A stretch of DNA of 64,000 nucleotides from a virus. The translations under genes were made by a program, and so were the position numbers. The DNA lies in the IMG/VR virus record IMGVR_UViG_3300036820_000003, positions 65,941 through 129,940 of that record. One strand, written 5' to 3'. The notes beneath the pieces were generated by a model. The model saw only the letters and a list, made by a program, of their open reading frames with translations. It made no database searches and was not told where the DNA came from. Positions 1 through 14,034 of the stretch are shown here, in pieces. Each line of letters begins with the position of its first letter. Position 1 is the stretch's first letter.

Positions 1-297
1 TTCCAGCTCCTTCCGAATTCCTTCGAGAACGCGATTCAGCAGCGGAAACATCTCACGACTCCCCAGTCCGTGCCCGTCGCCGTCCCCTTCAAGCACTTCC
101 AGGATGTGCCGACCCACGGACTTCCGCCAGCCCTCGTCGCCCGCGCCCTGGAAAGTCGCCAGCGAGTTGAGCAACTCCCGCAGATCCCCCAGATTCCCGC
201 AGCACGGCCCGACCTCCGACTCCTCTCCCTCTGCCGCCAGATGCAGCCACTCATCAGCGGTGAGGCCATACGTCCACACCGGGCTCGACTCTGACAT
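1..297 (-). CDS. Hypothetical protein, truncated by window start (MSESSPVWTYGLTADEWLHL...)
   Basis: Read by hand: ATG at 297 with GAGGAAGGAAC SD upstream, open to position 1; absent from ORF track because it runs off the edge. Confidence 0.7.
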   Translation of the reverse strand, partial: MSESSPVWTYGLTADEWLHLAAEGEESEVGPCCGNLGDLRELLNSLATFQGAGDEGWRKSVGRHILEVLEGDGDGHGLGSREMFPLLNRVLEGIRKELE

Positions 298-343
298 TCT
301 GTTCCTTCCTCTCGACTGGAAAACATCCGCTCGAAAATGTTTT

Positions 344-691
344 CTAACGTCCTCGCACCTTCCCGCATCCCCGACACGCAATCAGCTTTCCCAGTCGGAA
401 TCGCCAGGCGTGCCCGCGACACAGAAACAGTCGGTAATCAGCACCGCAGCGTCCGCAGCGCACACGAAGTCGCACGACGGAGGGCTTCCCGCAGACTCGG
501 TAAACCCTTCGTCCGAGCAAAGCCGTTCCCACTCGCATCCACTTGCACTCACACGGCGGAGCCCCCTCCAGCTCCACCCCCGCAAGCACGTCAATCTCGA
601 CGTCGACGCCCGCGCCCGCACCTTCCACTTCCGTCACTTCCCTCGACTCTGCCGGTATTCCCTTCGAGACTGATCCGTCATAAAGCGCCAC
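344..691 (-). CDS. Cys-rich putative zinc-binding hypothetical protein
   Basis: CxC, CxxC and CxxC motifs (CECK, CGRC, CRGC); same strand as neighbours. Confidence 0.55.
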   Translation of the reverse strand: MALYDGSVSKGIPAESREVTEVEGAGAGVDVEIDVLAGVELEGAPPCECKWMRVGTALLGRRVYRVCGKPSVVRLRVRCGRCGADYRLFLCRGHAWRFRLGKLIACRGCGKVRGR

Positions 692-807
692 ACCCGCTTC
701 CAGTTCGCCTCGCCCTCTCGCAGTCCGCGCGCCAGTCTGCGCAGCTCAGCCTGCGACATCTGCTCCAGTTCCTCGTCACCCGGAACCTCCGCACCTGCGC
801 CTTTCAT

Positions 808-1134
808 TCAGTTCACCCCCGTCGTAGCCGGATTCGGAACGACCGAAACGAAGGAGTCGCCGTTTGGGCAGGTGTACACGCCGTCCTGAACGACTGGCGG
901 ATCGATCTCCAGAGAGTTGATGATCACCTGCTGTTCGATGTCGCTGTACGTGGACGTGTCATTCCAGCAGATTCCGAGTCGAGCGACCTGGGCCGCCTTG
1001 CCGACGGAGCCGGTTGCACCCCTCGCACCAGGCGGTCCTTGCGGGCCGCGCGCACCCGCATGTCCCAGAGCCACGCCCAGAGCCGCCCCTGCAACCGCGC
1101 AGGCGATGATGCACAGAATTCGCTCGGTCATCAT
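808..1134 (-). CDS. Membrane-anchored protein with short collagen-like Gly-X-Y stretch
   Basis: N-terminal hydrophobic helix then GARGPQGPPGARGATGSVG; ATG overlaps upstream TGA (ATGA). Confidence 0.7.
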   Translation of the reverse strand: MMTERILCIIACAVAGAALGVALGHAGARGPQGPPGARGATGSVGKAAQVARLGICWNDTSTYSDIEQQVIINSLEIDPPVVQDGVYTCPNGDSFVSVVPNPATTGVN

Positions 1135-1427
1135 CGTCCTCCCCTGTCTCTGAAGTCGACGGGGGTGACAGCGTTGGTTCGAGCTGCAACGAACTGCGGC
1201 ATCTGGGAGATCATCTTCGCGACGGGTACCTTGGCGAAGTACCCCGCGCCAAAGCACACGTTCATCATCACATACCAGAACGCCTCGGCTCCGGTCATCT
1301 CGGCCACCAGACCGAAGTCCACCATCGCCTTCTTAGCCGGAATCCTGGCTAGATATCCCGCTCCGAACGCGATGTTGCTCATCACGTACCAGAATGTTTC
1401 CGCTCCTGTGAGCTGGATCTTTCTCAT
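1131..1427 (-). CDS. Small hydrophobic protein made of two tandem TGAExFWYVMxNxxFGAGYxAxxP repeats
   Basis: Internal duplication visible in translation; SD GGAAGGAA upstream. Confidence 0.8.
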   Translation of the reverse strand: MRKIQLTGAETFWYVMSNIAFGAGYLARIPAKKAMVDFGLVAEMTGAEAFWYVMMNVCFGAGYFAKVPVAKMISQMPQFVAARTNAVTPVDFRDRGGR

Positions 1428-1494
1428 GTGTTCCTTCCTTCCGGAAGCGGGCTGTCGAAAACACTTTCGACAGCCCGCCCCTTCACGTCAGCCC

Positions 1495-2379
1495 TCACAG
1501 ACCGTAACTGCACCCGGAGTCCACCGCCACCGCGCCCAGCGCCCCGGCCGTCGGCGAGTTCTCCGCGATCACGCCTCTCACACCGCTCGAGCCGCCTGAC
1601 ACGTGGAGAACGAGATGACTGTTCCCGTACGTCCAGCAGCCGTACCCGAAGTCCACCCCCGAGCTGTCGTCCACCCGGAATGAGGTGCCGTCGGCGTACA
1701 TGCCTCCGGCAGCGCCCGCGATCACGCCTTCCGTCCCGCATCCGGCGAAAGCGATTCCCTCACATTCTTCCAGGACGTAGCCGGTTCCGGAGGAGTCGAC
1801 CCCGCAGGCTCCCAGCCGAGAGTAGTTCATCTTCTGCAGGTGAAACCCCGACTTCGCGCAGGCGACGGCGTAGCAGCTGGCGAAGTCCACCGAGGTGCCG
1901 GCAGCGCCGCCCGGGACCCCCGTGAGATTGAAGCCGAACCCGCCCAGGGACTCACAGGTGACTTTCTTGAAGCTGGACACGATGACATTCGCCTCGACGC
2001 CATGGATTCCGTCGCCTCCGAACTGCTGGATGACCACATCGTCAAAGATCAAGCCGAAGGTATTTGCAGCAGCGCTTCGAGCAAGCACAACTCCCGAAGC
2101 CGCGTCCGTCACGCCGGTCCCGGTCAGACCCACGCCTGCCAGGGTGAGTCGAGCGCCGTCGGTCATGCTGATCGCGGGAACCCCCGGCTCCGTCATCTGG
2201 ATGACTGAACGGTAGGAGTTGACGCCCTCCACGGTGCAGGCCACCGGAGGTACCAGAGTGCGACTCACCGGGAACACCCCCACCGGAAGACTGCATCCGC
2301 CCTGATTCATCGCGGCTTGCAGCAGCGCGTAGTTATCGCCCGAGGAACTCAGTCCAGCGAGCACGGACACTGACGACAT
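1495..2379 (-). CDS. Right-handed parallel beta-helix protein (pectate lyase 3-like)
   Basis: N-terminal GDNYALLQAAMN..LPVGVFPVSRTL motif followed by Gly/Asn/Val-rich helical-coil repeats. Confidence 0.7.
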   Translation of the reverse strand: MSSVSVLAGLSSSGDNYALLQAAMNQGGCSLPVGVFPVSRTLVPPVACTVEGVNSYRSVIQMTEPGVPAISMTDGARLTLAGVGLTGTGVTDAASGVVLARSAAANTFGLIFDDVVIQQFGGDGIHGVEANVIVSSFKKVTCESLGGFGFNLTGVPGGAAGTSVDFASCYAVACAKSGFHLQKMNYSRLGACGVDSSGTGYVLEECEGIAFAGCGTEGVIAGAAGGMYADGTSFRVDDSSGVDFGYGCWTYGNSHLVLHVSGGSSGVRGVIAENSPTAGALGAVAVDSGCSYGL

Positions 2380-2566
2380 AGCTTTTCCCCCTCATCCTGC
2401 GCAGCGCCGGACGGAGTCGCACCAGCGCCATCACCGCCATGATAACAGTGATAACGGCGATCACGTGACTCAAATCCGCGTAAGCCCCGGGAGTTCTCAC
2501 CGTCGCAAACCCCGCGTGCAGTCCGGGGCTCACGTTCACATCTAGATACTGGTGCCAGCGCCCCAT
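2333..2566 (-). CDS. Small single-TM membrane protein
   Basis: Hydrophobic VIAVITVIMAVMALV followed by a basic stretch; overlaps both neighbours. Confidence 0.5.
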   Translation of the reverse strand: MGRWHQYLDVNVSPGLHAGFATVRTPGAYADLSHVIAVITVIMAVMALVRLRPALRRMRGKSYVVSVRARWTEFLGR

Positions 2567-3846
2567 GAGGTTTCCTTCCTTTTCGCCGCGCGATACGCCG
2601 CGCGAATGTACACGTACTGACGAGCCAGGGAATAGGCCAGATCCGGCAGAATCAGCACCGTCGAGGCAATCGCCTTCCAGCCTGCTTTCCGAGCCTGGAA
2701 CGCCTGTTCCAGAATCACGAGCGCGATCCCGATGAAGTAGTAAGGCGCGTTCACCGGATTAATCCCGCGCCAGCCGAACAAGTAGAACGACCAGCCGAGG
2801 TACACCAGCACCATCGGGGTGGCGAGCATCACAGCGTATGTCAGCACTTGACGAACAATCTGCTCGCGAGTCACTCGCGTCCAGCCGTACGCTCGCAGGG
2901 CGATGAGGGTGCCGTGCTGCCATCGTAGACGCTGGCTGTACCAGTCGCTCACGGTTTCCATCACGTCGGTCAGCACCTGGCAGTTGGACGGCGCAACTGT
3001 CTTGACTCCGAGCTTCTTCAGTCGCAAGGTCAGCTCGTAGTCCTCGACAATCGAGCGCACGTCGTAAACAGCTCCGTCGGGACGACTAGCGCAGACCTGG
3101 CGCATGACCCCAACCGGGATGGCCCATCCGGTTCCGCTCAGCACGTCGCACAGCGTCCTGCGATGCTGATGCCGAGCGAAGCGGGCGAACTCCGCGCGCT
3201 GCAACAGTCCCAGCAGGCCACCGCCCCTCCGCCCGTGGAAAGTCGCCCCCACTGCTCCGTATCCAGCGTCCAGCCAGCGCAGGGCGTTCCGGATGAAGTT
3301 CGCGTCCGGAACCGAGTCGGCATCAAATCCGCATATCACGTCTTCGTCTTCCAGCCACGGCAGCAGCATCGCGAGACTGCGGTTCAAGTTACCCGCCTTG
3401 CGATCCTGATTCCCGATCGTGCACGTGATCGACACCGGGAAGCGCGCCGCCTCCTCGGCCAGCCCAGGGACGGCGTTGTCGGTGAGGACGTACACCTCAT
3501 CTGGCTCGCGACTCTGAGTGAGCACCGCGCTGAGAGTCGCGCCCAGCTGCTCCACCTCGTTGTGAGCCGGAATCAGCACCACGACTTTTCGCGCACGCAG
3601 AGGTGACGGCGGCGGGAGAGGCTCACCCGGCACTGCGACTAGATCACAGCTGGTGACGCGCTCCCACGGCGCACGCTCCGTCACTCGCCTCCGACGCGGT
3701 AGCGTCGGAGCCGGAGCCTCCTCCCAGCGAGCACCTTCATCGAACAACTGCTCGAGCTGGTCAATCTCCGCCTTCACCTCGGGCGGGGGATGCGGCTCCG
3801 CGTACACCGGCATCTCAACAGTCGGATCCTGCTCTTCCGCGTTCAT
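2542..3846 (-). CDS. Processive GT2 glycosyltransferase (IcaA/PgaC/hyaluronan-synthase-like glycan synthase)
   Basis: IPAHNE, KAGNLN, DADS (DxD), VEDYELT, QRLRW (QxxRW), C-terminal TM helices; ATG 3846 with GAGGAAGGAA SD. Confidence 0.88.
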   Translation of the reverse strand: MNAEEQDPTVEMPVYAEPHPPPEVKAEIDQLEQLFDEGARWEEAPAPTLPRRRRVTERAPWERVTSCDLVAVPGEPLPPPSPLRARKVVVLIPAHNEVEQLGATLSAVLTQSREPDEVYVLTDNAVPGLAEEAARFPVSITCTIGNQDRKAGNLNRSLAMLLPWLEDEDVICGFDADSVPDANFIRNALRWLDAGYGAVGATFHGRRGGGLLGLLQRAEFARFARHQHRRTLCDVLSGTGWAIPVGVMRQVCASRPDGAVYDVRSIVEDYELTLRLKKLGVKTVAPSNCQVLTDVMETVSDWYSQRLRWQHGTLIALRAYGWTRVTREQIVRQVLTYAVMLATPMVLVYLGWSFYLFGWRGINPVNAPYYFIGIALVILEQAFQARKAGWKAIASTVLILPDLAYSLARQYVYIRAAYRAAKRKETSWGAGTSI

Positions 3847-3856
3847 GTTTCCTTCC

Positions 3857-4213
3857 TCACAGCAGGCTCGGGTTGCGCCTTTGCTGTAAATACAGCATAC
3901 CACGCCCAGCCGGCGCGAAGCGTCGGCCGAGGGCTCGGGGGGCTTCAATTGCAACTGGAAAACAGCCGCGTAAACAGCCACCCGCTTCTCGACTCCGGAG
4001 CATCCCAGCGAAAATCTCGTCCGGATCATCCACCGGATATGCCGGACTGACGGAGTATCCCCAGGCGGACGCCGCCATCCCCTCCAGAACTACCGGATCC
4101 TCCCGGGATCCGGCGTCCAGCTCCTCGCGCACTCGCCTGTCCATCCAGGTCACGGCCTCAACCCAGCGTTCACTGGTGACGACTTCGAGGGGAGGAGAAT
4201 CCGGGTCCGGCAT
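3857..4213 (-). CDS. Hypothetical protein
   Basis: Open frame on the operon strand; C-terminal part overlaps the GT2 promoter region, so extent is uncertain. Confidence 0.4.
   Translation of the reverse strand: MPDPDSPPLEVVTSERWVEAVTWMDRRVREELDAGSREDPVVLEGMAASAWGYSVSPAYPVDDPDEIFAGMLRSREAGGCLRGCFPVAIEAPRALGRRFAPAGRGMLYLQQRRNPSLL
3883..3902 (-). promoter_or_regulatory. Extended -10 (TGgTATGCT) overlapped by a perfect inverted repeat GCTGTA-aa-TACAGC
   Basis: -10 at 3899-3894; palindrome 3883-3896 just upstream of the GT2 SD; no good -35. Confidence 0.5.
3937..3957 (+). repeat. 21-bp core of the dispersed repeat upstream of GT2
   Basis: GGGGGGCTTCAATTGCAACTG. Confidence 0.85.
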
Positions 4214-4256
4214 CCCACGCCACAGCCAGCTCATTCCGAGTCTCCTTCTTCCTCGC

Positions 4257-4523
4257 TCAGGTGAGCGGACGCGGGGACGGGGGGATGTGAGGAGGAGGAG
4301 GGACCTCCAACAGGGGAGCGGGGCTCGAAAGTGTATTCGAGTCCAGCATCACCTCCTCCGTCACCCGAATCAGCCTGATTCGAGTTCCGTTCCGGGTGGC
4401 GCGCGCGAGCGTCTCGTCGAAGCGCGTGCGAGCCCGTCGCTCCGACGAGCTGACCGGCAGGCGAATCAGCCGTCGCCATCCGCCGGGCACCTCCTCACGC
4501 AGCTCAAAGCGCTCAGTTCTCAT
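4257..4523 (-). CDS. Hypothetical protein (RxxRVTEEV paralogue 1)
   Basis: Shares RFE...RxIRVTEEV segment with the adjacent ORF. Confidence 0.65.
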   Translation of the reverse strand: MRTERFELREEVPGGWRRLIRLPVSSSERRARTRFDETLARATRNGTRIRLIRVTEEVMLDSNTLSSPAPLLEVPPPPHIPPSPRPLT

Positions 4524-4983
4524 ATTCCGTCAGCACCTCCTCCGTCACGCGCACCGCGCGCAGCGCTCCCGTTCCCGACCGCGCGAGCCAGCCCTCCGCC
4601 AGTTCCTCGCGAACGCGAGCCAGCTCTCGCAGGGCGTCCTCCGGCTTCCAGGTCACTGAGCGTGTGAAGGTGAACCACTCCCCGTCCGGTTCGAAGCGCT
4701 GCTGGATTTCGAAACGCGTCGAAAATGTTTTCGAACGAAGGACGCGCTCAGCCGCCTCGCGTATGCGAGTGAGCTCCTCCGGAGGCGTCGCCGAGGCGAC
4801 GATCTGACGCGGGCAGATGTGAGATGCGGACCAGGTGATGAGATCCTCCAGCCAGGTAGCGTCACCGCGCGGATCTCCGAACACGTGAGTGACGCCGCAC
4901 ACCACGTGTCGCACCTCCACGTCGCCTTCGGCATTCAGACCTGTCACGTGGAAGGCGCGGAAGTTGACCGTCACAGGAACCAC
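4513..4983 (-). CDS. Hypothetical protein (RxxRVTEEV paralogue 2)
   Basis: C-terminal RFEIQQR...RAVRVTEEV; overlaps neighbours. Confidence 0.65.
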   Translation of the reverse strand: MVPVTVNFRAFHVTGLNAEGDVEVRHVVCGVTHVFGDPRGDATWLEDLITWSASHICPRQIVASATPPEELTRIREAAERVLRSKTFSTRFEIQQRFEPDGEWFTFTRSVTWKPEDALRELARVREELAEGWLARSGTGALRAVRVTEEVLTEYEN

Positions 4984-5249
4984 ACCTCGCCTTCCGTCTG
5001 ACCCGCAGGGGTCGCGCGGGTGAGACGGAGCTGATCGCCGGAGGATAGCTCGGCTTCGAGTTTCCCGGCGCGAGACAGAGCACGATTAACCGCCTGGGTG
5101 ATTCCCCAGCCGTTCAGCTCCTGCAGAGCCTGCAGACCGCGCAGACCCTCCCCGTCCAGCACGACCGTCACGCGACGCTCGCGAGAGGAATCCCCGCCGT
5201 CGCCGCCGATCTGCTCGGACGGGAAATCGGGATCAGTACTTGCGATCAT
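4971..5249 (-). CDS. Ribbon-helix-helix (CopG/Arc-like) DNA-binding protein
   Basis: RRVTVVLD strand followed by helix-G-helix (LQALQELNGWGITQAVNRAL). Confidence 0.6.
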   Translation of the reverse strand: MIASTDPDFPSEQIGGDGGDSSRERRVTVVLDGEGLRGLQALQELNGWGITQAVNRALSRAGKLEAELSSGDQLRLTRATPAGQTEGEVWFL

Positions 5250-5478
5250 GCAGTTCCTCCCGGGCGGGATTCGATTGCATCTGCGTCCTTTCATCTTCGG
5301 GCGCTAGAATGATGCAGCAGCGCTCACCCGCAGGACCCGTCACGTCCAGCGTCCAGCCGTCCTCGCGAACTCGCATCTCCTCCCTGACGACCGTCACGTC
5401 GGAGGGAAGCACCGACTCCACGTAAACAGCTATTCGTCTAGCGAACTCGTAGTTCGGATCCGAATTCGGCTCAGGCAT
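5233..5478 (-). CDS. Hypothetical protein
   Basis: Coupled overlaps with neighbours. Confidence 0.55.
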   Translation of the reverse strand: MPEPNSDPNYEFARRIAVYVESVLPSDVTVVREEMRVREDGWTLDVTGPAGERCCIILAPEDERTQMQSNPAREELHDRKY

Positions 5479-5836
5479 CTGAATCTGACTCCTTGTCGGG
5501 GACGTTCCTCGAACCCTGGAAACGGGGCGCGTAAACAGCAGGCTGGAAGAAGAGGGACGGAGCGTCGAAAACAGTTTCGAAGTGGGGCGGGGCGAGGGTG
5601 AGCGTGAGACCGGTGATGCAGCCGAAGCGCAGGATGTCGGCGATGTTCGGATTCTGATTCGGAATTCCGAGCCAGGTGACGGCCTCGACGCGACGACCTC
5701 GGAATAGGGCTCCGGGACGGGGGACTGGACGAGGGATGTAGTTGAGAGTGAGCTGCATCAGCGAGTCGGACCCCCTAGGACGATTAGCGCGACTGTGATG
5801 AGCAGCTCCGTCAGCAAGAATCCGAGCATCAGCCAC
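5471..5836 (-). CDS. Hypothetical protein
   Basis: Open frame in operon; true start may be the internal MQLTLNYIP. Confidence 0.5.
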   Translation of the reverse strand: MADARILADGAAHHSRANRPRGSDSLMQLTLNYIPRPVPRPGALFRGRRVEAVTWLGIPNQNPNIADILRFGCITGLTLTLAPPHFETVFDAPSLFFQPAVYAPRFQGSRNVPDKESDSDA

Positions 5837-6016
5837 ATGAGCGCCCAGGCCAGGACGTTGACAACGCGCAGGATTCGCATCACACGCATCCGGTCACCGC
5901 CAGCGCCCCGAGGGCCAGAATCAGGAACCACACCGCGAGAGTCACCGAGGCCCAGCGAACCTGTGAGGAGTGACGCAGGGCGCGCGGGTAGCAGCGCAGC
6001 CAGTTGAGAGCGAAGA

Positions 6017-6265
6017 TCACCCGGAAGCGGAAGTGAAGAACATGTGAACGGGTGAGGGAGCGCGGGAGGGGGGTTTTCGAACTAGTGTTCGGCATAATTC
6101 CGGCCTCCTCAAACGTCGACGCGGGACGTCCTTGTAGCCGAAAATCCGAGCGCGATCTTCCGAAGTCAGAGGGGCGGCCACTGTCTTGCGATAACGTCGC
6201 GCCGCGCGACGTTCGCTGATGCGAGTCGGGGTGATTCGCCACCAGACTTCACGCAGTACTGACAT
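6017..6265 (-). CDS. Basic hypothetical protein
   Basis: Overlaps upstream ORF end. Confidence 0.5.
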   Translation of the reverse strand: MSVLREVWWRITPTRISERRAARRYRKTVAAPLTSEDRARIFGYKDVPRRRLRRPELCRTLVRKPPSRAPSPVHMFFTSASG

Positions 6266-6464
6266 GCGCGGCTCCGGGAAGGATGACGGTCCAGCCGTCG
6301 CGCGAGGTGTGCCGGACGCTGACCTCGCCGCCCGCAGGGGAGCAAGTGACGACGGGGACGTCGATTCCCGGTCGCATGGCGGTGTTCACCATGTCGATGG
6401 CGGTGTCCTCGGGGATGTAAACTGCCATCGCCGTGACGGCCTGATCCGCGGTCATTTCATTCAT
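6249..6464 (-). CDS. Hypothetical protein
   Basis: Strong GGAAGGAAGGAAGGA SD run upstream of ATG. Confidence 0.7.
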   Translation of the reverse strand: MNEMTADQAVTAMAVYIPEDTAIDMVNTAMRPGIDVPVVTCSPAGGEVSVRHTSRDGWTVILPGAAHVSTA

Positions 6465-6559
6465 TCCTTCCTTCCTTCCTTCCTTTTCCTCCGGGTTCGA
6501 TTCCTCAAAGCCCCGCTGGGCGGACGACGGGCGGTCGAGTTCCCAGCGGGACGTTCAGG

Positions 6560-6587
6560 GTCCGACCGGGACCCGCCCCGGTCGGAC
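6560..6587 (-). terminator. GC-rich hairpin after the secreted-protein gene
   Basis: 11-bp stem GTCCGACCGGG/CCCGGTCGGAC directly downstream of the stop at 6596; no U-tract. Confidence 0.5.
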
Positions 6588-6595
6588 GTTGGGGG

Positions 6596-7570
6596 TTAGG
6601 AGGAGGCGCTGCCCTCGTTGATGCTGAAGGAGTTGCCGGTGATGGCGCTGGGCTCCATCGTGATCTGGCTCGCTCCGTTGATGGTGTTCGCCTGGACGAG
6701 CAGCTCGCCGCCGATCAGCCGATTACGGATGCTGCCGTTGTAGTTGTCAAAGGTCGCGTTGCTGAACGTGACCAGGGGGAGGTCTGCGGGTGCGGTCAGA
6801 TTGGGCGCGTTGGTGTTGTCCGCCCCGATGGCCGCCTCGAAGAAGTTCTCGGCGTTGACCCGCTCGGTGTACTGCAACTCCTTGACGAAAGTGCCCGAGG
6901 TGTTGTAGATGTCCACCGTGTACTGGATGAAGTGACGCTTCCCGGCGGGGGAGTAGTACGCGTCGAGAGTTACGGTGTCCCCCACGACGAGCGAGGTCTC
7001 GTCGACCGACGGCTGGACCTGATTGCCGGTGAACACGTAAGTGTCCGGGTCGCTGCCGGTGGCGATGCTGTTGACCCCCGTGGCGGAAGCGCCCAGTTCA
7101 GCGCCCGCCAGCTGAACGGCGGAGCCGGAGCGCAGGTTCGTCGAGCCCGGGTCGGTGACGATGACGCCATCCTGACTGCAAGGGTCGCTGCCGGTGGCGT
7201 TCTCAGTCAGATCGCCGTATGCGCCCAGCACCTCGAACTGACCGCCCAGGAACGTGACGCCGAGCTGCGCGGCCACGTTGTCGTCGTCGTCGCACAGCTC
7301 GACGCCGGTCGCGCCGGGATAGCTGCTGTCCAGGGCGTTGTTCAGATGCATCATCGCGGCAGTGATCTTGAATGTGGCGTGTGCGTCCCTGAGGTGCCAG
7401 TTGTCCCAGTGCTCCACGTACAGGCCGGCCTCACCGGTGACGTTGCTGCTAGGACCGACGACGGGAGCCGCGCTGGCCGCCGGAGCGAGGAAAGCCGAAC
7501 CGCCGAGAGCCGCGACTGCGACGCCGGAGGCGATCAGCCTTGAGCGCCTGTTGTTGTACTTGCTGGACAC
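6596..7570 (-). CDS. Secreted protein, possible glutamic peptidase G1 (peptidase A4)-like fold
   Basis: Signal peptide (basic N-region, ASA-A cleavage); AAQLG, VGDTVT, LVTFSNAT and GNSFSI resemble G1 segments; SD GGAAGGA. Confidence 0.55.
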   Translation of the reverse strand: MSSKYNNRRSRLIASGVAVAALGGSAFLAPAASAAPVVGPSSNVTGEAGLYVEHWDNWHLRDAHATFKITAAMMHLNNALDSSYPGATGVELCDDDDNVAAQLGVTFLGGQFEVLGAYGDLTENATGSDPCSQDGVIVTDPGSTNLRSGSAVQLAGAELGASATGVNSIATGSDPDTYVFTGNQVQPSVDETSLVVGDTVTLDAYYSPAGKRHFIQYTVDIYNTSGTFVKELQYTERVNAENFFEAAIGADNTNAPNLTAPADLPLVTFSNATFDNYNGSIRNRLIGGELLVQANTINGASQITMEPSAITGNSFSINEGSASS

Positions 7571-7634
7571 GGATGTCCTTCCTACGTTGGAAGGGCTTGC
7601 GGCCGCAAGCCCATGCGTAAAACCTACAGCATAC

Positions 7635-7671
7635 GACCGCGCGCCGCAACCTTTTGATGCGGTGCGCGGTC
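7635..7671 (-). terminator. 14-bp hairpin after the vWA gene
   Basis: GACCGCGCGCCGCA/TGCGGTGCGCGGTC immediately downstream of the stop at 7678. Confidence 0.5.
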
Positions 7672-7677
7672 AGTCGG

Positions 7678-8457
7678 CTATGCCTGAGTGGGAACCACCG
7701 CGAGCGCCATGTCCTCGGCTACCTCACGGTAGTTGGACACCCGGTCGAAGTAGTAGGCGTGAATCCAGGAGTGAGTCTTGGCGATTTCGACGTACTGGCT
7801 GTACGCCTCCTTGCCGGTGCCGTCGCCCAGGATGCCGACGGCCCACACCTCATCCCACTCGCCGTGGGAGCCGAGACCGTTCTTGAGCGTCGCCTGGGCG
7901 AGATACGCCTGGAATGCCTGCGCGTCGGCTAGCGCGCCGTCGGACAGGAGGATCCGAGCGCGAACCGGACGCTCGGCACGATGGGTGCTCCCGAACTCCG
8001 ACATGTAGTGCGCGTCGCCGGCGCGGATAGCCGCCATGATCTCGGTTCCGCCCTGCGGCTTGCCGTCCTTGAAGTACTTAGCGACGAACGCCTGCATCTT
8101 CTCGTCGAAGTTGGAGGAGTTCAGATCGCCGTCGTCGTCCCCCTCCCCGATAGGGCAGAAGATGTTGCTGAACGGGTAGGTGTAGACTCCGCCCTTGTCG
8201 TCGTCGCCGTCGGACTGCTCGGCGGCAGCCTGGCTGTCCAGCTGCTCGAAGGGAATGATGATCTCTCGCAGCGCCGCCACCTGCACATCGTAGGTGTTGA
8301 CCGAGGAGTCGCTGGCCCAGGGCCAGCCTTCGGACTCCGACACGTCGAAGTAGATCTCCGGCTCTACCTCCCGAGGTCCGGTGAGCAGCGGTACGATGCG
8401 CTCGCGCGGAGTGCGATCCGGCCCGCCGGTCGGTGTTTCCGTTCTGGTGATTAGCAC
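7678..8457 (-). CDS. von Willebrand factor A (vWA) domain protein
   Basis: MIDAS DVSES (DxSxS), GGT, LLSDG; SD GGAAGGAAG. Confidence 0.75.
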   Translation of the reverse strand: MLITRTETPTGGPDRTPRERIVPLLTGPREVEPEIYFDVSESEGWPWASDSSVNTYDVQVAALREIIIPFEQLDSQAAAEQSDGDDDKGGVYTYPFSNIFCPIGEGDDDGDLNSSNFDEKMQAFVAKYFKDGKPQGGTEIMAAIRAGDAHYMSEFGSTHRAERPVRARILLSDGALADAQAFQAYLAQATLKNGLGSHGEWDEVWAVGILGDGTGKEAYSQYVEIAKTHSWIHAYYFDRVSNYREVAEDMALAVVPTQA

Positions 8458-8539
8458 GCTCTTCCTTCCGTAAACCCTCTGTGTGGGGGCGTGTGCGTAA
8501 ACAGCCTACAGCCGCCGACTTCGCGATGCAAGGGGCAGG

Positions 8540-9763
8540 CTAAGGGAGCGACGGCAGCGTGACGCCCGCCTCCTGCAGACGGGTTTTGATGTGATTGATC
8601 AGATGATACAGATCCCTGCAGTAAACGGACGGATTGTCGAATGATCCGACTCCGTTCTCGGTCGTCATGTAGCGATTCGGATAGTAGCCTCCTCCGCACA
8701 CGTCGAAGACGGGACAAGTCTGGCAGACGGCTGACGGAGCGGGAGGCGTGTACCCCGGATGGAGGGCTATCTGGTCAAGGGTGGAGGTTCGAACTGAGAG
8801 ACCTGTGGCGGAGCCTCCGTCCGCTGTGGAGCGGAGAGCGTCCAGCAACTCGGCGGAGCCGTCGGCGTTCACCGCGAGGGAACGAGATCGAGGCGGAGGG
8901 CCGATGAAGCCGGCGCGCACATCGCGTCCCAGCAGACGACTGATGATGATGCGGAAGAGGCGGATCTGAGGGGCTCCCGGATCCAGGTACCAGGCGTCGA
9001 AAATATTTTCGAGCCAATCAGACGTCCCTGCGGCAGGAGGGCGATCCCATGTCTTCAGGCGAGGCAGCAGATCCAGCATCGGCGGGGACTGCGAGCGCAG
9101 GAACCTGTACGTCTCCACGGGATCGGAGTCGAGATTGACCACCGCCAGCAGACCCCCGTAACTGGAAGTCCAGCGCGGGGAGCGCAGCAGGGCGAGGGCG
9201 TCCAGAACCTGAGACGTCGAGGAGGATCCGCTTTTGAAGGGACGATGCGAATTCTGGGCGTCGTTGCCGTCCAGGCTCACGCCGAAGCGAATCCCGGCTG
9301 GCGCGAGCGTCGTCAGCATGTCCTCGGTGAGGAGCGTCGCGTTGGTCTGCATGCTGAAGGTGAGAGTGGTTCCGGGGGGCGCCTCCGCTTTGAACGCGCT
9401 GACGATGTCGAGGATGCGAGCGGGACCCGCCAGCAGCGGCTCGCCTCCGTGCAGGATGACGCGGAAGCGAGGGACGCTGTGGGAGCGCAGGTAGGTGCCC
9501 AGACGCGCCGCGAGGGTCAGGTAGATCGAGGGGGATATGAATCTGGGCTGGACGAGCCAGCTAGTATCCGCGAGGGAGTACATGTAGCAGTAATCGCAGT
9601 CCAGATTGCAGCGCGACGCTATCTTGAGCACAAGCTCGCTAAATATCGGAGTTGAAGGGGGTGTCGGGACTGATCTTCGACTGGAAGAGGGAATCAGGGG
9701 CTGAGTCGTTTTCGTCTCTGATCGCGTTGTTGAAGGGGTAGATATCCGGGCTGTCGCTTCCAC
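8540..9763 (-). CDS. fxsB: FxsB-family cyclophane-forming radical SAM/SPASM peptide maturase
   Basis: LVLKIASRCNLDCDYCY (CxxxCxxC), ILHGGEPLL, QTNATLL, GVSLDG, C-terminal CQTCPVFDVCGGGYY...NPSVYCRDLY; GTG 9763 has GGAGGAG SD 7 nt upstream. Confidence 0.88.
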   Translation of the reverse strand: MEATARISTPSTTRSETKTTQPLIPSSSRRSVPTPPSTPIFSELVLKIASRCNLDCDYCYMYSLADTSWLVQPRFISPSIYLTLAARLGTYLRSHSVPRFRVILHGGEPLLAGPARILDIVSAFKAEAPPGTTLTFSMQTNATLLTEDMLTTLAPAGIRFGVSLDGNDAQNSHRPFKSGSSSTSQVLDALALLRSPRWTSSYGGLLAVVNLDSDPVETYRFLRSQSPPMLDLLPRLKTWDRPPAAGTSDWLENIFDAWYLDPGAPQIRLFRIIISRLLGRDVRAGFIGPPPRSRSLAVNADGSAELLDALRSTADGGSATGLSVRTSTLDQIALHPGYTPPAPSAVCQTCPVFDVCGGGYYPNRYMTTENGVGSFDNPSVYCRDLYHLINHIKTRLQEAGVTLPSLP

Positions 9764-9812
9764 AAGAGGTCTCCTCCAGGATGACGGCGAGGGGGGTGAT
9801 GGCGATGGGCAT
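9639..9812 (-). CDS. fxsA: FxSxx-COOH-type RiPP precursor peptide, 57 aa, three tandem cores
   Basis: Hand translation MPIAITPLAVILEETSCGSDSPDIYPFNNAIRDENDSAPDSLFQSKISPDTPFNSDI*; GAAAGG SD; ends FNSDI-COOH directly at the maturase; below ORF-track cutoff. Confidence 0.85.
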   Translation of the reverse strand: MPIAITPLAVILEETSCGSDSPDIYPFNNAIRDENDSAPDSLFQSKISPDTPFNSDI

Positions 9813-9836
9813 GAGACGGCTGCCTTTCGTTGCGGG

Positions 9837-10640
9837 CTATCTGAGGGTGCGGGTGTCGATGAGGCGGATGTTGGAGTCGTTGCCGTCGTAGTGCAGGCCG
9901 GTCACCAGGACGGGAGGGGCGTTGACCAGAGCGCGCTCGTGCAGCGTCTCGTGGAAGAGATGATAGTGCCCGTGGAACACCCGGGTGACTTTGGTTCTGA
10001 TGGCGATGTCCTGCAGGAGCCGGGAGTGCTGACGCGCGATGTGAATCATCGGCTTCCAGGACTCGTGCGGGCGCGGGAGCGACGGGACCCAGCAGTCCGG
10101 CACGTCATGCGAGAGCAGCACGTCGGCCGGTCCGTCGGCGATGATTGAGTCGGCCTGCTCGCGGGTGATCTGCTCGTCCGGCCACCAGTCCACCCCCTCG
10201 GTTCGAGAGTGACGATCGACGCTGACCGCGCCTCCGACCGCGAGCCAGGTCTTCGAATTCCAGTTCCAACGAGTGCCGCGAGGGAGATAGCTGATCGCTT
10301 GGAATCCGCGCAGTCGCAGCGGGTAGTCGTGAGGCTGCTCGTAAGCTGCGAGCAGCTCTTGGATTTCGGGCCACCACTCGTGATTCCCGTCGATCCACCA
10401 CAGCTCCATCCCGAGTTCGACCAGAGCGTTGTCGAGCTGCTGGATGGGCATGAGCCCGGCGGTCCAAGCGGCGGGCTCCATCAGCTTGAATCCGAAGTCG
10501 CCCAGCTGGATGACGATCTTCCGAGTCTCCCCGGCCTGGGCGAACTGGCCGTCGAGAGCCTCCAGGGCGTGCAGGGTCCACTTCAGATTCCCGTGCACGT
10601 CGCCGAGGAGTCCCACGAACTCGGGATCCTTGTCTTCCAT
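9837..10640 (-). CDS. Calcineurin-like metallophosphoesterase
   Basis: GDVHGN, QLGDFG, IDGNHE, LSHD, FHGHYH motifs; SD GAAGGACGA. Confidence 0.9.
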   Translation of the reverse strand: MEDKDPEFVGLLGDVHGNLKWTLHALEALDGQFAQAGETRKIVIQLGDFGFKLMEPAAWTAGLMPIQQLDNALVELGMELWWIDGNHEWWPEIQELLAAYEQPHDYPLRLRGFQAISYLPRGTRWNWNSKTWLAVGGAVSVDRHSRTEGVDWWPDEQITREQADSIIADGPADVLLSHDVPDCWVPSLPRPHESWKPMIHIARQHSRLLQDIAIRTKVTRVFHGHYHLFHETLHERALVNAPPVLVTGLHYDGNDSNIRLIDTRTLR

Positions 10641-10724
10641 TCGTCCTTCCGTCCTTCCGTGGGAGGGGGCGGGCTGCGCCCGCCCCCTCACTATATACCC
10701 GCGTGCGCGCGTGCGCGCGGGGGA

Positions 10725-11447
10725 TCAGGCGTCGGAGTCGGAGCCGGGAATCAGCCTCGAGCGCAGGGTGCGCGGGATGCTCGGGGTGACCTTGACGGAC
10801 GCGATGGTCGCGCCGTGCTCCAGACGCAGACGTGCGACGGCCGTGGCGACGGCCGCCGCAGCTCGCTCCTTGGCGACCTGCTCGCGCTGGGCTTGGCCGT
10901 AGTCGGACGGGAAGGCCGTCAGCGGCACGTCAAGCTCATGAGTCGTGATGACCCGGACGCGCATGACGGCGAGGGGAGCGGAGGGGGCTGACGAGGCGGA
11001 TTCAGGCTTCAGGATGCTGATCAGTTCCTTGCGCAGGTGAGCGGGAATCTCGTAATCGTCGATCCTCTCGCTGCTCAGATAGCCGATCATGCCGCTCCGC
11101 CAGGCCTCCCCCTGCGCGCGGAAGGCGCTGAGCCGGGTCTCCAGGACGGCGGACGTGTCATCCGCTCCGGCGGGGGGCAGGGGGACGTCGTAGACTGCCT
11201 GCTGACGGATGTGCTCCTCATCGAACTGGCTGTTGCGTCCCGGGATGCGCGGGACGCCGCGCGCTCGCAGCCAGTCGTTGGTGCCTTCGTGACACGGACC
11301 CGGGCCGCCGAAGTACACGCGCATCTTGTGCGCGTAGCGCGCCACCTCCACTCTCCAGGTGATCTGCCGGACGCGCTCCGCGTCGAGGGCGGACTGCAGC
11401 TCCTCCTGACGGGAAGGGCGGGGCGGGGATTCAATTGTCTCGGTCAT
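10725..11447 (-). CDS. Hypothetical protein, first gene of the leftward arm
   Basis: SD GGAAGGAAC before ATG 11447; downstream of a leftward promoter. Confidence 0.7.
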   Translation of the reverse strand: MTETIESPPRPSRQEELQSALDAERVRQITWRVEVARYAHKMRVYFGGPGPCHEGTNDWLRARGVPRIPGRNSQFDEEHIRQQAVYDVPLPPAGADDTSAVLETRLSAFRAQGEAWRSGMIGYLSSERIDDYEIPAHLRKELISILKPESASSAPSAPLAVMRVRVITTHELDVPLTAFPSDYGQAQREQVAKERAAAAVATAVARLRLEHGATIASVKVTPSIPRTLRSRLIPGSDSDA

Positions 11448-11484
11448 TGCGTTCCTTCCGGGTGCTTGCGTTTGCCGCACTTTT

Positions 11485-11513
11485 AGTGTACTGGCGGGGA
11501 GGTGGCGCGTAAA
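11485..11513 (-). promoter_or_regulatory. SigA-type promoter for the leftward arm (TTTACG-17-TACACT)
   Basis: Hexamers at 11513-11508 and 11490-11485 with 17-nt spacer. Confidence 0.65.
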
Positions 11514-11532
11514 CAGCTTTGACGGGGTTGAG

Positions 11533-11562
11533 TTGCGGGGATGGGGTGCGCTGGTGTATGCT
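11533..11562 (+). promoter_or_regulatory. Divergent promoter for the tRNA cluster (TTGCGG-18-TATGCT)
   Basis: Hexamers at 11533-38 and 11557-62, back-to-back with the leftward promoter. Confidence 0.5.
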
Positions 11563-11569
11563 TTTAGTA

Positions 11570-11659
11570 GCAGGCGGGCGGGTTGAGGTTGCCCCCCACC
11601 TATGGTGACTTACCCGTGAGCGTGGTTAGGCGCTCCCGGCTGAGGACCGGTCCGTCTGC
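11570..11659 (+). ncRNA. Candidate multibranched structured RNA at the 5' end of the tRNA transcript
   Basis: 10-bp closing stem 11570-79/11650-59 enclosing GAGCG/CGCTC and other hairpins; begins at the predicted +1. Confidence 0.3.
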
Positions 11660-11660
11660 A

Positions 11661-11704
11661 GCTGACCGTCGTCGGTCTTCGGGGTTTTCCCGATGACGGT
11701 CAGT
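11661..11704 (+). other. 15-bp RNA hairpin immediately before tRNA-fMet (processing signal?)
   Basis: GCTGACCGTCGTCGG/CCGATGACGGTCAGT. Confidence 0.55.
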
Positions 11705-11707
11705 CGA

Positions 11708-11781
11708 CGCGGGGTGGTGCAGTTAGGTGGCACGCTGGGCTCATAATCCAGAGGTCGGAGGTTCAAATCCTTCCCCCGCAA
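11708..11781 (+). tRNA. tRNA-Met(CAT), initiator-like
   Basis: C1:A72 mismatch, CT-CAT-AA loop, GGTTCAAATCC T-arm; no encoded CCA. Confidence 0.92.
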
Positions 11782-11806
11782 CTAGGTTGACAACTGAATA
11801 CGTCAG

Positions 11807-11888
11807 GCCAGGTTGCCCGAGTGACCAAAGGGAGCGGACTGTAAATCCGTCGACGTAGTCTACCCAGGTTTGAATCCTGGACCTGGCA
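11807..11888 (+). tRNA. tRNA-Tyr(GTA)
   Basis: GCCAGGT/ACCTGGC acceptor, CT-GTA-AA loop, long variable arm, GGTTTGAATCC T-arm. Confidence 0.92.
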
Positions 11889-11966
11889 CGAGGGTCATCT
11901 CGCTAGAGCTCTGACACCAGTGTCAAGCAGGCCCCTGATCGTTCAAGTCGAGGCAGAAGCCTGCCT

Positions 11967-12037
11967 GCGGATGTAGCTCAATGGCAGAGTTCCAGCTTCC
12001 CAAGCTGGTTACGCGGGTTCGATTCCCGTCATCCGCT
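11967..12037 (+). tRNA. tRNA-Gly(CCC)
   Basis: GCGGATG/CATCCGC acceptor, CCAGC-TTCCCAA-GCTGG arm, GGTTCGATTCC T-arm. Confidence 0.95.
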
Positions 12038-12055
12038 CGGAAAGGAAGGTGGAAG

Positions 12056-12880: not shown

Positions 12881-13480
12881 GTGAGCGACGATGTGAGGGA
12901 GAGGATCTCAGCGCTGCGCGCTGAGGTCCTTTTGCTTGATGAGAGGCTCAGGGCGGCCGTAGCTCATCAATCGAAAACCAGTTCGAATGGAGGAGGGGGA
13001 GGAGGGGGAGGTAAGATCTCGCATTCTCCCCCGCCGTGGAACGCGGCGGCCGGACTGTGTCGGATGGATCTGCACGCGCTGGCGCGGGAGATCGAGCGAA
13101 CGTGGAGATCGGAAGGGCGACTCAGGGTCAAGGCGCGCGGGGGTTCCGACGCGAACACGCGCGGGGCTCTGGAGGCGCTGGACGCGCTTTTGCTCGTAGT
13201 GCCGGGATGGCTGGTGGCGGACTCGATGCGTCAGCTTGCGAAGTGGGGTCTGCGAGCCGGGGTGATCCTGGGGGATCTGGAGCAGCCGCGTCGGCTGCCG
13301 GGGGATGTGGCGTGTCCTTATTGTTCCATGAAGACCTTGCGCATGTGGGCGGGAGCTGGCATAGTTCGCTGTGTCAACCCCTCGTGCACGATGGAAGACG
13401 GCGGAAAGGCCGTCGCGACTCCGGAGTGGATCGACGGGGAGGGAATTCGACTGACATGGCAGGACGGGAGAGTGCTGTGA
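12881..13480 (+). CDS. Hypothetical protein with C-terminal zinc ribbon
   Basis: CPYC...CVNPSC; coupled to next gene (GTGA). Confidence 0.65.
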   Translation: MSDDVRERISALRAEVLLLDERLRAAVAHQSKTSSNGGGGGGGGKISHSPPPWNAAAGLCRMDLHALAREIERTWRSEGRLRVKARGGSDANTRGALEALDALLLVVPGWLVADSMRQLAKWGLRAGVILGDLEQPRRLPGDVACPYCSMKTLRMWAGAGIVRCVNPSCTMEDGGKAVATPEWIDGEGIRLTWQDGRVL

Positions 13481-14034
13481 CTCAAGGAGCGGGGGACGGG
13501 GGGGCTTCAATTGCAACTGTTCCTCCGGAAGGGGTTCGGGAGGGCGACTTCCGGATTGTGCGAGTGAGGGGAATCGGCGGATGGGGGATATCCGTCGGTC
13601 AGATGCTGAACGGAGAGCGACTCTCGTGGCACGATCACGCTGAAGTGTTCCTGGGAGTTGTCGGGAACGCGAATGCGACGGCGAGCGCGTATCCGGATCG
13701 TCGAGGAATCCAGCTGTATGAGAGAGCTGAGCAGGAAGTCTGGTCGACGGGGGTTATCGAGCTTTCGGACGCTCAGCGGACGGGAATCGTCAACTGGTGC
13801 CTGGGGCATCCCTGCGTCCAGTACGGCTGGCTGGACTACGCGGCGCTGATCCTGCATCGACTGGGGATGAAGGATCCTGCTTTGCGACGCTATATCGCTG
13901 CATCGGGACACGATATCTGCTCGCAATATGCGTCGCTGGCGTATCTGCACGGGGGCGGAATGGATCTTTTTCCGGGGGAGTGGGAAGGGTACGTGACTCC
14001 GGAGATGCTGGCCGGGAGGGTGGGACAGGCGTGA
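13477..14034 (+). CDS. Permuted papain-like (NlpC/P60, YaeF/YiiX-type) amidase/peptidase
   Basis: His first (HDHAEV), YGWLDY, Cys late (ICSQYAS), YVTPEML; GTG start overlaps upstream stop. Confidence 0.7.
   Translation: MTQGAGDGGASIATVPPEGVREGDFRIVRVRGIGGWGISVGQMLNGERLSWHDHAEVFLGVVGNANATASAYPDRRGIQLYERAEQEVWSTGVIELSDAQRTGIVNWCLGHPCVQYGWLDYAALILHRLGMKDPALRRYIAASGHDICSQYASLAYLHGGGMDLFPGEWEGYVTPEMLAGRVGQA
13495..13520 (+). repeat. 26-bp dispersed repeat, copy inside the peptidase gene
   Basis: GACGGGGGGGCTTCAATTGCAACTGT, identical at 21380-21405; 21 nt also at 3937-3957. Confidence 0.9.

Follow-up and report, generated by a model that had tools for sequence, protein, structure and literature searches.

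A peptide gene and a radical SAM gene on a phage genome

This analysis concerns two adjacent genes on the minus strand of a 64,000-nucleotide (nt) stretch of viral DNA, positions 65,941 to 129,940 of IMG/VR record IMGVR_UViG_3300036820_000003. The whole stretch is called the window below, and positions are counted from its first letter. One gene would encode a peptide of 57 amino acids (aa) with three similar Phe-containing units, and the other, directly downstream, a stand-alone radical S-adenosylmethionine (SAM) enzyme with a SPASM region. Taken together the two genes fairly probably make up a triceptide module of the FxsA/FxsB type that is borne by a phage, in which a precursor peptide would acquire up to three Phe cyclophanes. 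The features of the locus are as follows.

9639..9812, minus strand: candidate precursor peptide gene, 57 aa, with an ATG start and the stop codon TAG (9641-9639) included; a short leader is followed by three F-x-S/N-x-I core units.
9823..9828, minus strand: GAAAGG, a Shine-Dalgarno-like site 10 nt upstream of the precursor ATG.
9777..9797, minus strand: leader motif T-P-L-A-V-I-L, residues 6-12, recurring as T-P-L-x-x-I-[LIT] in the upstream open reading frames (ORFs) of the related phage loci L002 and L003.
9720..9752, minus strand: core unit 1, S21-I31, with F27-N-N-A-I; its S-x-D-I-Y-P-[FLV]-N portion is common to the peptides of the related phages.
9672..9701, minus strand: core unit 2, A38-I47, with F43-Q-S-K-I; F-Q-S-x-I is in keeping with the canonical logo F-[NQ]-S-[SA]-[IL].
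9642..9671, minus strand: core unit 3, S48-I57, with F53-N-S-D-I-COOH, in agreement with the F-x-S-x-[ILV]-COOH in which 74 cellular FxsA peptides end.
8540..9631, minus strand: radical SAM/SPASM cyclophane-synthase homologue, 363 aa, with no HExxH extension; GTG 9631 is the preferred start.
9632..9763, minus strand: alternative 5' extension of the enzyme ORF (start GTG 9763, 407 aa), which shares 125 nt with the precursor gene, in a different frame, and is probably non-coding in the enzyme frame.

The locus sits on a real and complete phage genome. The record of 129,940 bp is scored as 100% complete and its ends share a 127-bp repeat, while the window, which is its right half, encodes a terminase, a portal-MuF-NUDIX fusion and head proteins. 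An earlier note, made from the letters of this DNA alone, had taken the pair to be carried by a virus, and the complete genome with its terminal repeat agrees with that view.

The peptide gene

The peptide gene starts 24 nt past the stop codon of a metallophosphoesterase gene, and no terminator-like or promoter-like site was found on the minus strand between the two-gene module and its neighbours. The earlier note had proposed this ORF together with a ribosome binding site of its own, and both were confirmed, with a coding-like codon usage in addition. For the peptide frame the G+C content at third codon positions (GC3) was 0.79, the mean of phage coding sequence being 0.76, and with codon models trained on 14 long genes of the phage the in-frame model was favoured by 22-29 nats. 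By these codon statistics, where the small ORF and the 407-codon reading of the enzyme ORF overlap (125 nt), it is the peptide frame that is coding. The ORF had also been described as missed by gene prediction, which is true of some callers at most, since the protein collection lists it as P0121, on the 129,940-bp contig, and at least one gene caller must therefore have predicted it.

The predicted peptide is very acidic, with a hydrophobic N-terminal stretch that includes the leader motif. The remainder contains, three times over, the repeat [S/A]-P-D-x(2-3)-F-[N/Q]-[N/S]-x-I, the final copy forming the end of the peptide. The aromatic-x-x motifs available to a cyclophane-forming enzyme are F-N-N, F-Q-S and F-N-S, plus Y-P-F. 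The core Phe residues lie 20, 36 and 46 residues from the leader Pro; the corresponding range in canonical FxsA peptides is 26-39, within which only core 2 falls.

The unusual nature of this arrangement was assessed by a motif census of the window in six frames, which took in every stop-to-stop segment of 30 aa or more (1193 segments, 104,443 residues). No segment but the 57-aa peptide had three F-x-[S/N]-x-[ILVM] motifs inside 45 aa, and no other had such a motif at its end. Of the five matches to the stricter pattern F-[NQ]-[SN]-x-I in the window, three fall within this peptide, and for a stretch of 40 residues the Poisson probability of holding three of the loose motifs is about 2e-6. The three FxSxx-like units previously reported are, then, present and without parallel among the segments of the window.

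The enzyme

The product of the second gene is, as judged from profile alignment and predicted fold, a homologue of the enzymes that form three-residue cyclophanes (3-CyFE) over its full length, across both the radical SAM and the SPASM regions. Among the NCBIfam families it matches TIGR04269 (FxsB) best, with 318.3 bits (E 6e-95) over profile positions 1-362 of 363, followed by YhhB (278 bits) and XyeB (95 bits). The CxxxCxxC radical SAM motif occupies residues 8-15, and the seven Cys residues C8, C12, C15, C303, C306, C312 and C338 of the 363-aa protein (P0001), which form the pattern CxxxCxxC + CxxCx5C...C, are invariant in 20 phage-clade and cellular sequences and also align with those of ChlB. 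The full-length alignment and these Cys residues bear out the description of the gene as an intact radical SAM/SPASM gene beside the peptide.

Among solved structures, the nearest is that of the ChlB radical SAM domain (PDB 9gm3; E 7e-60, 35% identity). An AlphaFold 2 model of the enzyme had a mean predicted local distance difference test (pLDDT) score of 82.5, and its best fold match, over the whole length, was the ChlB-leader complex 9gm3, with a template modelling (TM) score of 0.86. A PHROGs search returned a generic radical SAM match only, and a PADLOC search only weak, viperin-type matches confined to the radical SAM core.

Related phages

In a tree of 53 relatives, the window enzyme grouped with 18 proteins of 49-55% identity (Shimodaira-Hasegawa-like approximate likelihood ratio test, SH-aLRT, 81). 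This group and two more proteins, about 20 in all with three on viral records, split from cellular FxsB with 100% support. In IMG/VR, only three relatives of at least 41% identity were found, and two of these reside in large phage records: G001, of 101 kb, and G002, of 132 kb, with terminases 77% and 46% identical to that of the window. Both records have the same arrangement as the window, a small ORF followed by a radical SAM gene that is 50% identical to the window enzyme, so that the search of viral data for the same pair, suggested in the earlier note, gave a positive result. No related DNA and no close enzyme were found in 50,697 GenBank phage records, and the relatives in genomes and metagenomes were, among the matches listed, cellular only (37-46% identity).

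The small ORFs of L002 and L003 carry the leader motif as T-P-L-E-R-I-L or T-P-L-G-K-I-[IT] (the latter twice, in L003) and several aromatic-x-x motifs, and share with the window peptide the element S-x-D-I-Y-P-[FLV]-[N/D]. Pairwise BLASTP over this element gave E values of 0.009 (window against L002) and 0.003 (L002 against L003). From the common leader, the S-x-D-I-Y-P element and the aromatic-x-x motifs it follows that the predicted precursor family is conserved at the level of motifs within the phage clade, yet is fast-evolving. In L003, from the 132-kb relative, the gap between the small-ORF stop and the enzyme start is 1 nt. The ORF ahead of the enzyme at this locus (L003:946-1386) contains two successive units, each a leader (T-P-L-G-K-I-x) and an aromatic-rich core, in one frame.

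Comparison of the window genome with G001 matched 39 of 143 crude genes, mostly those of DNA modification and of the structural core. Of the genes in the leftward accessory arm, about 20 in number, only the radical SAM gene has a homologue in G001, where it is placed elsewhere. That one gene alone of the accessory arm has a counterpart in a related phage speaks for retention of the module itself, and for selection acting on it.

The host of the phage is probably an actinomycete, to judge from three lines of comparison. The cellular relatives of the enzyme were, among the matches listed, all from Actinomycetota, the closest of them at 38-46% identity; the only phage matches of a peptidase encoded at 13036-14034 were 11 Streptomyces phages; and the genome has a G+C content of 63%.

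Comparison with cellular Fxs loci and known precursors

Cellular loci with FxsB-like enzymes were sampled for comparison (163 loci for precursors; the best 80 GTDB loci for partner genes). A small ORF ending in F-x-S-x-[ILV] lies directly before the enzyme in 74/163 loci. The logo of these canonical FxsA peptides is V-A-A-F-[NQ]-S-[SA]-[IL]-COOH, and 35 of the 74 have a [VI]-P-L-x-x-[LMI] leader motif, which precedes the core Phe by a median of 33 residues. The FxsA/FxsB systems of Actinomycetota (characterised member MscB, IPR026335 / TIGR04269) thus resemble the phage pair in enzyme family, in the position of the peptide directly before the enzyme, in the F-x-S-x-I-COOH end and in the P-L-x-x-[LMI] leader motif. 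They differ in having one core, where the phage peptide has three, and a leader of about 40 aa, where that of the phage has about 20, and the phage pair stands on a genome of lytic type.

They also differ in their partner genes. An alpha-ketoglutarate (alpha-KG)-HExxH hydroxylase is fused or adjacent to the enzyme in 61 of the 80 cellular loci, and FxsC (TIR-like), a KGGVGR ParA-type ATPase or an FxSxx TPR protein (FxsT) is found within 4 kb of it in 72. None of the HExxH, FxsC, ParA-type or FxsT partners was found in the whole 129,940-bp genome, nor in the window or at L002, L003 and L004. The lack of adjacent HExxH and FxsC partners, remarked on earlier, therefore extends to the entire genome, although FxsC had there been called an ATPase, whereas it is TIR-like and the ATPase is the ParA-type partner.

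Two further observations were made on the cellular loci. An AAC(3)-type N-acetyltransferase-like gene is located between FxsB and FxsC in 26/80 loci, and in 24/41 of those with a canonical FxsA (for example L132:6323-7204 and L131:6427-7284), and appears to be a regular member of the Fxs cluster. At twelve loci (L047, L053, L060-L062, L064, L066-L068, L070, L072 and L074), FxsB-like enzymes that lack FxsA are preceded by an ORF ending in ...L-D-L-A-[AS]-W-F-[AGTE]-stop; these Trp-Phe-tailed small ORFs look like a second class of precursor.

Outside the FxsA/FxsB systems, the nearest comparisons are with ChlA/ChlB (PDB 9gm3, 9gmc), which provides the nearest solved structure, and with MicA/MicB (minviopeptin). 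PMC12912966 and PMC11499958 describe ChlB as binding the precursor leader directly and as forming several cyclophanes per peptide. ChlB carries a fused alpha-KG-HExxH hydroxylase domain and its targets are Tyr motifs, YDR among them, while the phage enzyme is stand-alone and would act on Phe motifs. Three cyclophanes have been documented on one precursor in the case of MicA (PMC12912966), and precursors with 2-3 Hxx motifs are also known (PMC11499958). The statement of the earlier note that precursors carry one C-terminal core is accordingly correct for canonical FxsA but not for triceptide precursors as a whole. MicA and other multi-motif triceptides (HtkA P156, YhhA) are like the phage peptide in having three aromatic-x-x motifs per precursor; in these triceptides each motif loses 2 Da. 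In MicA, a Pro stands directly ahead of the cyclophane motif, a likely cleavage site before the first ring (PMC12912966), and in the phage peptide a Pro likewise precedes F27 and F53. These systems belong to a PasB-like enzyme subfamily with other motifs and extra tailoring enzymes, and are cellular rather than viral.

Alternative readings of the locus

Several results weigh against a three-core FxsA/FxsB module. The peptide itself has no recognisable homologue. Three canonical controls scored 36-42 bits on the FxsA profile TIGR04268 (cut-off 28 bits), but the peptide gave no match at E values up to 10, so that this check, proposed beforehand as support, went against the assignment. A profile built from 73 canonical FxsA sequences gave the peptide 1.5 bits, a score reached by 70 of 2000 shuffled sequences. 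A word search of 5.8 billion proteins recovered only the peptide itself, and phmmer against 1.84 billion representatives the peptide and one other entry, P0122, which was discarded as spurious, being the 1286-aa translation of a tandem repeat. On the enzyme side, the 318 bits fall short of the curated FxsB cut-off of 370 (two cellular FxsB controls scored 567 and 495 bits), and the enzyme belongs to the separate clade described above. The earlier description of the enzyme as FxsB-type holds in so far as TIGR04269 is its best match and the Cys residues are conserved, but not in the sense of membership in FxsB proper. The number of viral relatives that could be inspected was three only.

Of the alternatives, the one that survives best, though we think it unlikely, is that precursor and maturase are genuine but that the chemistry is different: only the C-terminal F-N-S-D-I might be cyclised, or the Y-P-[FLV] site, or a different cross-link might be formed. 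In canonical precursors the core is single and strictly C-terminal (74/74), and for this reason the two internal units of the phage peptide may not be substrates. The sole element common to the three phage peptides is not F-x-S but S-x-D-I-Y-P-[FLV]-[N/D], because of which the real cross-link site could be Tyr-based; the score below the cut-off and the separate clade likewise mean that the substrate motif of the enzyme could differ, and the related enzymes YhhB, HaaB and ChlB use Tyr or His motifs (PMC11002830, PMC11499958). On the other hand, three near-identical F-[NQ]-[NS]-x-I units, each following [S/A]-P-D, are hard to explain unless each is used, and action at multiple sites is normal for this family of enzymes (PMC12912966).

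It is improbable that the enzyme acts elsewhere, on a host FxsA or on some phage or host protein, with the small ORF untranslated or not serving as its substrate. Complete phages with an orphan canonical FxsA and no enzyme (described below) indicate that phage and host components can be mixed, and the lack of sequence homologues of the 57-aa peptide would be in keeping with this explanation. It is opposed by the coding signature of the small ORF, its precursor-like position and 8-nt spacing just before the enzyme, motif statistics far beyond chance, and the analogous small ORFs with common motifs ahead of the enzyme in L002 and L003.

The least probable alternative, which we would give very little credence, is that the enzyme truly starts at GTG 9763 and that the three-core ORF is dual-coded or an accidental alternative frame within its 5' end. 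The preferred GTG 9631, which is also the start in the database gene call, lacks a good Shine-Dalgarno site and drops conserved F-x-E residues. The enzyme-frame sequence F-S-E-L just upstream of it fits the F-x-E-[LIV] of the family, and GGAGGAG is present 7 nt before GTG 9763, with no other canonical start between the two GTG codons. However, 51 of the 58 copies of GGAGGAG in the genome are not at gene starts, so that this site was rejected as support; in the enzyme frame the overlap (the first 44 codons) has a GC3 of only 0.44 and an off-frame codon model describes it best, whereas the peptide frame agrees with the coding model and stays the constrained one even with the long start; the extension is of low complexity and rich in Ser, Thr and Pro; homologues have only 3-12 residues ahead of the conserved strand, not 44; and the FxsB profile alignment begins at residue 41 of the 407-codon reading. 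Because codon statistics make the peptide frame the coding one in the overlap, the enzyme probably starts at GTG 9631. Of the gene extent given previously, 8540-9763, the radical SAM/SPASM gene from 9631 down to 8540 stands, but the first 44 codons look non-coding.

Proposed mechanism

If the locus is indeed a two-gene triceptide module, the peptide and the radical SAM/SPASM enzyme would be made together, as GTG 9631 is located 8 nt past the precursor stop, a spacing that suggests translational coupling across the gap. The enzyme would bind the leader of the precursor directly, since the CxxxCxxC motif, from residue 8 onwards, comes too early for a RiPP (ribosomally synthesised and post-translationally modified peptide) recognition element to fit ahead of it, and since the best structural match is a ChlB-leader complex. 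Three-residue cyclophane-forming enzymes join an aromatic carbon of residue i to the C-beta of residue i+2; MscB, of the FxsB family (IPR026335), joins Phe C4 to Ser C-beta, and other enzymes join Phe C4 to Asn C-beta (PMC11002830). By analogy with MscB on F-x-S, SAM-derived radical chemistry would link each Phe ring to the C-beta two residues on, and the products would be up to three small cyclophanes, at F27-N-N, F43-Q-S and F53-N-S, with the loss of 2 Da each. No beta-hydroxylation would be expected, there being no HExxH domain, and a prolyl-type cleavage could release units, given that Pro precedes F27 and F53.

The genome lacks any detectable tyrosine or serine integrase and, as noted, the TIR, ParA and TPR partners, and for these reasons the product would most likely be made during lytic infection of an actinomycete. 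Its target is a matter of speculation, but it could act on an Fxs-linked immune locus of the host or on neighbouring cells.

Orphan FxsA genes and a possible role in phage-host conflict

The pattern V-P-V-A-A-F-N-S-S-I-stop, which is that of canonical FxsA, was found in three other IMG/VR records, with no FxsB-like gene anywhere in those records:

L211:7099-7242, minus strand: orphan canonical single-core FxsA in a complete phage record of 113,096 bp with terminal repeats; it scores 29.5 bits on TIGR04268, against the cut-off of 28.
L212:3406-3540: orphan canonical single-core FxsA in a viral record, ending in V-P-V-A-A-F-N-S-S-I.
L210:11989-12132: orphan canonical single-core FxsA in a viral record, ending in V-P-V-A-A-F-N-S-S-I.

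A tblastn search of GenBank phages with canonical FxsA gave no match. Like the window phage, these viruses carry a peptide of the FxSxx-COOH type, but theirs has a single core and no maturase, whereas the window phage has its own enzyme and a divergent, three-core peptide. The occurrence of an orphan FxsA in some phages, and of peptide plus enzyme in unrelated ones, suggests that phage and host are in conflict over the Fxs peptide.

The loci that surround cellular FxsAB in 72 of the 80 sampled genomes are of the TIR-ParA-STAND type. A 2026 preprint (10.64898/2026.10.19.760177) reads FxsC/FxsT as a TIR-ParA cell-suicide (abortive-infection) system, and proposes for the FxsAB peptide the role of an antiviral agent or of an alarm signal. 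In this light, the phage product might be a look-alike of the host Fxs peptide, delivered in triple dose and with its own maturase, which jams, pre-empts or mis-triggers the FxsC/FxsT TIR-ParA suicide system of filamentous actinomycetes. We consider this doubtful, but if true it would be the first RiPP-based viral counter-defence and would offer a handle on the role of the Fxs peptide in immunity. It is this possible tie to the immune-type Fxs loci of the host that gives the locus its main interest.

According to PMC12360287, which cites Dragos et al. 2021, the RiPP clusters reported so far in phages are mostly bacteriocin-type cargo of temperate phages. Here, a complete phage without an integrase keeps a predicted precursor-maturase pair. 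Among the papers searched, none on a viral cyclophane (triceptide) pathway was found, in line with what the earlier note had supposed. What is new, on present sequence comparisons, is a minimal viral FxsAB-like module with a three-core precursor; the module is not of a new kind, since multi-motif triceptide precursors are already known in other subfamilies. As a small, expressible system of two genes, it may be useful for probing the function of Fxs peptides, and for enzymology it offers a compact, 363-aa, stand-alone putative cyclophane synthase with a natural three-site candidate substrate.

Genome context and other observations

The immediate neighbours of the module are the metallophosphoesterase gene and genes for three proteins without family matches. 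They were considered as parts of the module and rejected, as they are not kept beside it in L002 or L003. The leftward accessory arm, window 1-12000 (genome 61-78 kb), includes, among its approximately 20 genes, a GT2 glycosyltransferase, a secreted 324-aa protein and the metallophosphoesterase. Three tRNA genes (Met-CAT, Tyr-GTA and Gly-CCC) are situated at 11708-12038, at the junction of this arm with the rightward genes.

Two features of the structural genes were also noted. At 24668-29017 of the window, a single ORF of 1449 aa has matches to portal, MuF-like minor head and MutT/NUDIX hydrolase proteins. In the 101-kb relative (G001:C1:56652-59351; L119 / L121), the terminase large subunit matches as two pieces about 1 kb apart within a 915-aa frame, a split that is likely due to an intein-like insertion.

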